DNA of 64,000 nt, from the IMG/VR virus record IMGVR_UViG_3300030708_002798. One strand, 5' to 3'. The stretch is from a virus. Its lineage: Duplodnaviria > Caudoviricetes. The notes beneath the pieces are model-generated. The model did not search any database, had not been told where the DNA came from, and was given only the letters and a program-made list of their open reading frames with translations. Within the stretch, counting starts at the first letter, position 1. Each line of letters opens with the position of its first letter. Position numbers and translations under genes: made by a program. Below, in pieces: positions 52,790 to 62,816 of this stretch.

Positions 52790-52859
52790 TTGTCGTTACC
52801 TGAAATACTAGGGTGAAATTAACCTTCTCATCTTTCGATGGATCCGTTTTCCCGTTCCT

Positions 52860-53027
52860 TCAGTCGTTTGCGTCCCAATAGTAATCACATTCTGGCACAG
52901 AGTCCTTAATGGTCTCCACTAGTTCAACTTGAATTTTAGGTTCAAGATGTTCTTGTGCCTTTATTCTGAGCATTAATGCATCAGCATCAGCACAGGTCAT
53001 AGTTGAATACAGAAGTAATTCAAGCAT
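52860..53027 (-). CDS. 55-aa ORF nested in aptamer 2 (MLELLLYSTMTC...ECDYYWDAND)
   Basis: hand translation; GGAG 10 nt upstream; resembles the 66-aa neighbour. Confidence 0.7.
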   Translation of the reverse strand: MLELLLYSTMTCADADALMLRIKAQEHLEPKIQVELVETIKDSVPECDYYWDAND

Positions 53028-53062
53028 GGGATGAACGCTCCGTTCCGCGACTTACTTGCGTC

Positions 53063-53263
53063 CTATGTATAAATACCGTCACACTGACCTTCCACCTTTG
53101 TCTTGAGATACCCAATAAGATTTAACTTTGACCGTAGGTCTAGGTTAGGATCTGCTTGGATCTCTACTCGTCTTTGGAGGAACCTTTCACAAGACATATG
53201 CCATCCGTAAGGATTGCCGTCATCATGATGGGCAAGGGTCAATGCCAACAGTATGTTTAACAT
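53063..53263 (-). CDS. 66-aa ORF nested in aptamer 1 (MLNILLALTLAHH...QCDGIYT)
   Basis: start moved downstream of the promoter; hydrophobic N-terminus; two Cys. Confidence 0.7.
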   Translation of the reverse strand: MLNILLALTLAHHDDGNPYGWHMSCERFLQRRVEIQADPNLDLRSKLNLIGYLKTKVEGQCDGIYT

Positions 53264-62659: not shown

Positions 62660-62765
62660 AAGGGTAAGTAAAAGTACGGGGGAACGCACTGGTTAGAATA
62701 TTCCTACACCACCCTCCAGTGTAGGTATGAGAGACGTGATTTATACTCCCTAGAGGTCTCGGTTT
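62660..62765 (-). ncRNA. structured psbA 5' leader, PhotoRC-II-like motif
   Basis: GAGAC/GTCTC and CCTACAC/GTGTAGG stems, TGGAGGG loop; resembles the motif recalled from upstream of cyanophage psbA. Confidence 0.65.
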
Positions 62766-62816
62766 GTGGGGAGTTACAATAGATTAAAAAACGTTACGTT
62801 TCTTAACCCGTTGACT

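Follow-up and report, generated by a model that had tools for sequence, protein, structure and literature searches.

A predicted nested pair of glutamine aptamers sharing one long-range helix in the leader of a cyanophage small-gene operon

Glutamine is a central nitrogen metabolite, and no RNA sensors of it are known apart from the glutamine riboswitches. Those of the glutamine-I or glnA type (Rfam RF01739) are represented by the leader of Synechocystis gifB, and glutamine ON-riboswitches control the DUF4278/YRG class of genes (PMC6212724). In the glutamine-II or Downstream-peptide type (RF01704), the CGC linking strand has a role in the ligand pocket, and U4:A37 and C5:G36 are the only pairs of the pocket helix that are not above 97% conserved (PMC6698751). 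Forms with more than one aptamer have been described as simple tandems in the literature surveyed, and the 2010 glnA alignment includes sequences of the type described below, with their units kept separate and the half-strands of P3 left as loops (PMC2864571). A 2017 survey found glutamine aptamers to be nearly absent from phages, with two identified in two cyanophage genomes (PMC5473149).

The window analysed here is a stretch of 64,000 nt from a T4-like cyanophage (IMG/VR record IMGVR_UViG_3300030708_002798) that carries a PhotoRC-II RNA at 62690-62786, and 421 cyanophage records match the region of interest. The element under study lies on the minus strand, in the leader RNA of a small cyanophage operon, and all features below are on that strand. 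Rfam returned no glutamine riboswitch for the window at the gathering threshold, or between 52300 and 53500 at E<=10, and the premise was therefore established from relatives. Among 80 IMG/VR loci retrieved by homology to the downstream 54-aa protein alone, leaders matched RF01739 and RF01704 at the equivalent place; in one compact relative the outer aptamer, with a 40-nt insert in P3, scored 37.8 bits against RF01739 (gathering score 35). The relatives share a layout that begins with a promoter, continues as CGUUC-A-P2a-CGC-AAGUA-(P3 5')-C-G-GAACG-G-AG-CGUUC-A-P2b-CGC-AAA-(P3 3')-GAAG-GAACG-G, and ends with a short platform, a Shine-Dalgarno (SD) sequence and the YRG gene. Although the loci had been found by protein homology alone, this composite was present in 65 of the 68 with enough upstream sequence. 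Of the three exceptions, L026 carries an endonuclease-like insertion, L055 seems to have undergone a deletion between its two GACGCAA repeats, and L068 has an inner unit that is degenerate. Scanning by pattern for further P3 5' strands, combined with anchored parsing, yielded 142 unique elements, comprising 60 with an ORF in P2b and 82 with a plain hairpin in its place.

The junction pattern was identified in one of 301 sampled genomes of the picocyanobacterial family and was not found in the other genomes searched. The single positive (L253), a 7-kb contig of phage-like DNA in the Prochlorococcus single-cell assembly AG-337-J18, has the nested element with an ORF in P2b and an adjoining ORF1-like gene, and is probably phage DNA captured in a single-cell genome. 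A looser pattern scan of genome contigs was uninformative on hosts: among the 120 loci listed, 118 were chance matches, the real ones being L253 and L298.

Transcription of the operon is predicted to start 1-3 nt 5' of the first aptamer nucleotide, from a promoter (TTGACT-17-TATAAT, 53311-53283) that matches the consensus at 11 of 12 positions and has equivalents in relatives. The -10 box lies within a palindrome, GGTCTATAATAGACC (53292-53278), and relatives carry differing palindromes at the same place directly 5' of CGTTCA, that of L018 being without TATAAT, and this is suggestive of an operator or a 5' hairpin. A TGTA-N8-TACA sequence (53334-53319) resembling the GTA-N8-TAC box of NtcA lies further upstream, beyond the -35 box; it is centred ~50 nt ahead of the predicted start, an unusual position for an activator. 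The first gene downstream of the leader (52789-52625) encodes a 54-aa double-YRG protein of the DUF4278/IF17-like kind (phrog_545, E=9.7e-32), which resembles a nitrogen regulator. Its own DUF4278 match falls below the cut-off (E=0.0046), and the downstream protein of a relative matches the family at 51 bits against a cut-off of 25.3; all 117 downstream proteins contain YRG, and DUF4278 is their only Pfam match. The leader thus precedes a DUF4278/IF17-like (YRG) gene, as glutamine riboswitches do. A short hydrophobic ORF (~30 aa from an internal AUG, 52617-52525) lies between this gene and the operon's intrinsic terminator (52509-52485), a 10-bp stem followed by a T run, and the terminator hairpin overlaps a sigma-70-type promoter with a 12 of 12 match (TTGACA-17-TATAAT, 52498-52470).

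We propose a single nested double glutamine aptamer as the fold of the 5' part of the mRNA, from about 53277 to 52790. Its outer unit would be a glutamine-I three-way junction composed of P1, P2a around ORF1 and a P3 flanked by loop E. The 5' strand of outer P1 (CGUUC, 53275-53271, followed by A 53270) pairs with GAACG at 52857-52853 and closes the junction in the manner of RF01739. As in that model, P2 begins right after CGUUCA, with UCC (53269-53267) pairing with GGA (53063-53061) across ORF1 at base-pair probabilities of 0.73-0.85, and is followed by CGC (53060-53058); both P2a and P2b covary, and a role of these elements in binding is predicted. An A and the loop-E 5' strand AGUA (53056-53053) come next, in agreement with the Rfam glnA consensus ...GaCGGAAGUA..., and lead directly into the 5' strand of P3, AGUCG (53052-53048). 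On the far side of ORF2, the P3 3' strand CGACU (52866-52862) is immediately followed by GAA (52861-52859) and a G (52858), which together form the loop-E 3' strand and lead into the outer GAACG and the linchpin G after it (52852).

The 5-bp complement AGUCG/CGACU is by itself unremarkable, as the 213 nt of 52851-53063 contain 30 such perfect complements and shuffles of them 20.0 +/- 5.6. Taken with its flanks it is unique: counting both strands of the 64-kb window, AAGTA-N5 is followed within 600 nt by the reverse complement and GAAGG a single time, where ~0.13 would be expected. It is the comparative evidence from homologous elements that places P3 beyond chance. Positions 1, 2, 4 and 5 are paired in 100% of the 142 unique elements even as the pair types vary among A-U, G-C and G-U (position 1: G-C 67, A-U 52, G-U 23; position 2: G-C 136, G-U 4, A-U 2). 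Shifting the register lowers pairing from the observed 90% to 10-43%, and whole-helix variants include GAUCG/CGAUU, GAGCAUA/UAUGCUC, GAGAUAUG/CAUAUCUU, GGACAACG/CGUUGCCC and GGAAGG/CCUUCC. These two lines of evidence are more telling for P3 than partner shuffles, a weak control because families share most positions (mean 0.81 against 0.90 observed). An alignment of the ORF2-bearing elements, evaluated with a pair counter, likewise had P3 100% paired, with three pairs changed on both sides. Where RF01739 has a local hairpin, 181 nt separate the two strands, with the inner core and ORF2 between them, and the loop-E strands AGUA and GAA are present once, split between unit 1 and unit 2, with none at the inner junction. 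Judged by this covariation, AGUCG/CGACU is a real long-range P3 helix common to both units. A first-pass annotation, made from the letters of the window alone, had put forward exactly this complement, flanked by AGTA and GAA and shared by two aptamers; its coordinates were verified on the minus strand, and the shared, loop-E-flanked helix is borne out by covariation in the phage homologues.

Position 3 of P3 is a conserved A.C mismatch in 68 of the 142 elements, namely the GGACGG/CCGCCC subfamily (L082, L081, L170, L193 and others). The 8-bp forms of P3 have a second A.C at position 6, which L193 has changed to A-U while keeping that at position 3. Could the mismatch be a protonated wobble or a tertiary contact?

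Both P2 loops of the window are whole genes, of ~200 and 168 nt. ORF1 (66 aa, 53263-53063; phrog_6471, E=3.5e-38) occupies P2a, and its stop codon TAG overlaps the P2a 3' strand. In the 54 long-loop relatives, 51 of which have an ORF at this position, the 5' strand of P2a covaries with the choice of ORF1 stop codon (UCUCA/UGAGA, UCCUA/UAGGA and UCUUA/UAAGA). ORF2 (55 aa, 53027-52860; phrog_504, E=1.2e-25) occupies P2b, formed by UCCCA (53031-53027), the last A of which is the A of the ORF2 AUG, and UGGGA (52877-52873). In the 60 relatives with an ORF in this loop, the 4 bp of P2b that span it are 99% paired and include C-G to U-A changes, and every loop length is divisible by 3; in 56 of these relatives the ORF starts at the stem-overlapping AUG and ends at a UGA or UAA inside CGACUGAAGG, as ORF2 itself does with UGA. 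The AG linker that creates GGAG is found in 55 of the 60 elements with an ORF in P2b and in 1 of the 82 without. Since the linker tracks the ORF, GGAG (53041-53038), which is built from the end of inner P1, the linchpin G and the AG loop, is the SD of ORF2 and lies within the inner hairpin. This association confirms the proposal that the hairpin GAACG-GAG-CGTTC (53045-53033) covers the GGAG in front of ORF2.

The far end of P3 is predicted to open into a second three-way junction, made of P3, the GAACG-GAG-CGUUC hairpin and P2b around ORF2, in which every element of the ligand pocket would recur, circularly permuted: the helix of CGUUC with GAACG, the CGC linking strand and the G that trails GAACG. 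In the window these correspond to GAACG (53045-53041) with G 53040, the equivalent of the linchpin G with its long-range C:G pair, to CGUUC (53037-53033) with A 53032, where the strand partners covary, and to CGC (52872-52870). Read from the second CGUUC, the inner junction is CGUUC-A-P2b-CGC-AAA-P3 (far end first)-C-G-GAACG-G, a permuted glnA core without loop E. The elements CGUUCA-P2, CGC and the G after GAACG are therefore present in both units, and their role in ligand binding is predicted for each.

Lacking loop E and having its P1 closed by a 3-nt loop, the inner unit may not bind ligand. Only the outer aptamer would then sense glutamine, the inner junction being a non-binding scaffold derived from a second aptamer and kept to hold P3 together and, where ORF2 is present, to serve as a translational operator that hides the SD and AUG of that gene. 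The inner unit does have CGCAAA and C where loop E would be AAGUA and GAAG, the first G of its 3-nt loop would have to make the long-range C:G pair, GGAG tracks ORF2, and in L068 the inner linking strand is degenerate while P3 and the outer elements are retained. However, CGUUCA, CGCA and GGAACGG are invariant in the 51 compact ORF-free elements, the inner helix varies solely at the pair that true pocket helices tolerate, whereas a plain hairpin would drift freely, and glutamine-II also binds its ligand without loop E (PMC6698751). The invariance of the inner pocket, together with variation confined to the tolerant pair, favours a ligand-site constraint over a plain scaffold, and we consider the scaffold unlikely. 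We treat the inner junction as a candidate second glutamine site.

The assignment of P1 partners decides between nested and side-by-side aptamers. The four P1 strands are identical in most elements, in which ordinary covariation and energies cannot assign the partners; nearest-neighbour energies of -22.9 kcal/mol for the nested and -18.2 kcal/mol for the tandem pairing without P3 leave the pseudoknotted P3 unscored and do not decide the topology. As U4:A37 and C5:G36 are the less conserved pairs of the glutamine-II pocket helix, we scanned for variants at those positions of P1 and found, among 155 unique composites, four variant haplotypes in 38 variant elements. Written as first CGUUC/first GAACG/second CGUUC/second GAACG, these are CGUUC/CAACG/CGUUG/GAACG (31 with all four strands in the contig, plus one that lacks the first strand at a contig end), CGUUC/AAACG/CGUUU/GAACG (n=3), CGUUU/CAACG/CGUUG/AAACG (n=3) and CGUUU/GAACG/CGUUC/AAACG (n=1). 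A GGBACGG scan for variants at the A37 position gave no real composites.

Nested pairing, in which the outer CGUUC joins the last GAACG and the inner strands form the GAACG-GAG-CGUUC hairpin, is complete in 38 of the 38 variants, whereas tandem pairing is complete in none, each variant leaving C.C/G.G, C.A or U.C/G.A mismatches. By the pair counter, nested P1 is 100% paired with 22 double-change cells, and its covariation score was reached by 0 of 500 shuffles. The variable pair is C-G in 30 and U-A in 4 cells of the outer helix, the latter representing a compensatory C-G to U-A change in four relatives, and G-C in 16, C-G in 15 and A-U in 3 cells of the inner one. Tandem pairing leaves 18 of 34 and 16 of 34 cells unpaired at the variable position, has no compensatory change and does no better than shuffles. 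In both helices the variation is confined to the equivalent of C5:G36. These patterns represent ~3-4 independent events with no counter-example, and this covariation supports the nested, shared-P3 fold, not side-by-side aptamers, as the conserved arrangement.

Two independent glnA-type aptamers in series, each with a local P1 and a degenerate P3 loop, are consequently very improbable. The identical strands of most elements would permit such an arrangement, units a and b were entered as distinct glnA RNAs by Weinberg et al., and in the course of transcription a first local P1 might arise ahead of the synthesis of the last strand. Each aptamer would nevertheless have to close on its own strands, as serial riboswitches do, and that pairing is mismatched in every P1 variant where nested pairing is perfect; moreover, what would be two 'degenerate P3 loops' show the joint covariation of a single helix. 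As the variants cost tandem pairing only one terminal pair, a transient tandem fold may still form. A pseudoknot of the Downstream-peptide type at unit 1, with GGAACGG in a 3' hairpin loop, is ruled out by the same covariation, because the pairing it needs is mismatched in 38 of 38 variants. The least credible reading, that the repeats reflect protein-coding constraint (the C-terminal WDAND of ORF2) or recombination sites for small-ORF cassettes, can point to ORF2 reading through GGGACGCAAACGACUGA, to the ORF1 homologue in the other loop of L147 and to the deletion-like L055, but the sequences and helices persist in 82 elements in which a plain hairpin replaces ORF2, which rules out coding constraint as the cause of conservation, and compensatory changes are characteristic of RNA pairing. 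The repeats may well have cassette exchange as a by-product. The small ORFs do act as cassettes, as in L147, where the ORF1 homologue occupies P2b; in L055 the likely deletion between GACGCAA repeats leaves a single aptamer without P3; and in L026, L068 and L022 unit a is adjoined or replaced by HNH/homing-endonuclease-like ORFs.

The nested fold preferred here differs in part from what the first-pass annotation had envisaged. Its central suggestion, an outer glnA-type aptamer that encloses a circularly permuted inner core, is supported, with P1 partners that covary only in the nested sense. Its description of this fold as an alternative, with switching between two topologies, is not supported, given that it is nested pairing that has been conserved and that tandem pairing is disrupted in the lineages with variants; nor does a Downstream-peptide-type pseudoknot toward the ribosome-binding site apply, the conserved structure being pseudoknot-free. 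The interval that it assigned to the element, 52851-53063, places the internal motifs correctly but begins at GGACG (53063), and so misses the outer CGTTCA at 53275-53270, upstream of ORF1.

The strand CUGAAG (52863-52858), which comprises 2 nt of P3 and the loop-E strand, has a second partner in UUUCAG (52805-52800), a sequence overlapping the SD of the YRG gene (AGGU, 52801-52798). The stretch that best complements CUGAAG reaches precisely 2 nt into the SD in 138 of 140 elements, and the helix covaries at position 2 (U-A 70, C-G 64, U-G 4) and position 3 (G-U 90, G-C 39, A-U 9); the alternative pairing of CTGAAG with TTTCAG near the YRG start, noticed at the outset in the window, is upheld by this fixed register and covariation. 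Between the two strands lies an accessory module, AAC-GGAUC-(CAUC GAAA GAUG)-AGAAG-GUU (52848-52821), with the hairpin CATCGAAAGATG at 52840-52829. The CATC-GAAA-GATG tetraloop hairpin had also been pointed out; it covaries, with at least 8 different fully complementary stems, and is accessory, the module being present in 27 of 140 elements. The flanks of the module (ACGG... and GAAGG) resemble the J2/3-P3-J3/1 half of a glutamine aptamer, and it is possibly the remnant of a third aptamer unit. The UGA stop codon of ORF2 (52862-52860) belongs to the P3/loop-E strand. In L021, L026 and L058 the stop is UAA (CUAAAG) and the anti-SD partner is CUUUAG; the change of stop codon is thus matched by the anti-SD partner, and one nucleotide is under three constraints, those of stop codon, aptamer and anti-SD helix.

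We then modelled the 491-nt element of the window thermodynamically in its ligand-free state. The minimum free energy (MFE) structure contains P2a, P2b, the accessory hairpin and the anti-SD helix (probability 0.84-0.93), whereas P3 and outer P1 have probabilities of ~0.005, and the best fold with the whole nested core lies 3.5 kcal/mol above the MFE. Among relatives, the anti-SD helix is in the MFE structure of 73 of 78 ORF-bearing and 32 of 55 compact elements, and P3 in that of none. In the ORF-bearing relatives the nested core averages 8.3 kcal/mol above the anti-SD fold by nearest-neighbour energies, which, in such a model, would be a lot to pay for a ligand of millimolar affinity.

These folds suggest a mechanism. 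Without glutamine, CUGAAG would pair with UUUCAG at the SD of the YRG gene and block translation; glutamine would stabilise P1, P3 and loop E, withdraw CUGAAG and free the SD, giving a translational ON switch. We infer the ON direction from the control of the DUF4278/YRG class by glutamine ON-riboswitches and from the anti-SD helix in the ligand-free fold. Taken as a whole, a nested double glutamine aptamer that acts as a translational ON switch for the DUF4278/IF17-like gene is, in our judgement, a likely explanation of this leader, with glutamine as the presumed ligand and both sites probably binding it, coupled by P3. As the SD and AUG of ORF2 lie in inner P1 and P2b, folding would be expected to compete with the translation of ORF1 and ORF2. 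Two-site cooperativity through the shared P3 is plausible on this model. A fuller picture, which we offer tentatively and regard as somewhat doubtful, is that of one fold with two coupled glutamine sites that gates three cistrons in opposite senses, with translation as a competitor and the shared P3 as the cooperative element. At high glutamine, the SD and AUG of ORF2 would be buried, the AUG of ORF1 would abut the P2a stem and the SD of the IF17-like gene would be released, while ribosomes on ORF1 or ORF2 would melt P2a, P2b and P3, so that sensing and translation would contend for one molecule.

Hundreds of T4-like cyanophages have the nested element as the usual leader of a small-gene operon, and it suggests a means by which an infecting phage could sense the nitrogen status of its host. 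Because real genes occupy its hairpin loops, standard models overlook it. The ORF-free relatives, of ~100 nt, offer a natural compact system in which to study cooperativity between two sites of a riboswitch with low affinity. Nested or permuted glutamine aptamers were not described in the literature that we searched, a body that did not include Ames and Breaker 2011, and the element is a new architectural variant of a known riboswitch class.

Set beside glutamine-I as represented by RF01739 and the Synechocystis gifB leader (PMC6212724), the outer unit is alike in its P1 sequence, the A-P2-CGC linking strand, the loop-E-flanked P3 (AGUA/GAA), the trailing G, the DUF4278-type downstream gene and an aptamer strand able to pair with the ribosome-binding site. 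It differs in that P3 is not a hairpin but pairs over a long range and has as its 'loop' another complete pocket core, permuted in order, and in that the P2 loops hold whole genes; the Rfam model is blind to the window element. Glutamine-II (Downstream-peptide, RF01704, PMC6698751) has the same pocket nucleotides, does without loop E like the inner unit, and shares the host and phage environment and the YRG/DUF4278 genes, but closes its pocket helix as an H-type pseudoknot, whereas the fold conserved here is fully nested. The 'tandem glnA RNAs' (PMC2864571) and the tandem glycine riboswitches resemble this leader in having two aptamers for the same ligand, from which a sharper, more digital response is expected. 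In tandem glycine riboswitches, however, the two aptamers are separate domains joined by tertiary contacts, and in contrast to the tandem glnA description each P1 here combines a strand of the first unit with one of the second, and a single P3 serves both; the 'tandem' form is one interlocked fold, an aptamer inside the stem of another with its order permuted. Circularly permuted natural RNAs include hammerhead and twister types and permuted tRNA genes, and the likeness to these is that the same core is closed at a different helix. In the cyanophage leader, the permuted copy lies inside an unpermuted copy of the same aptamer, within one molecule.
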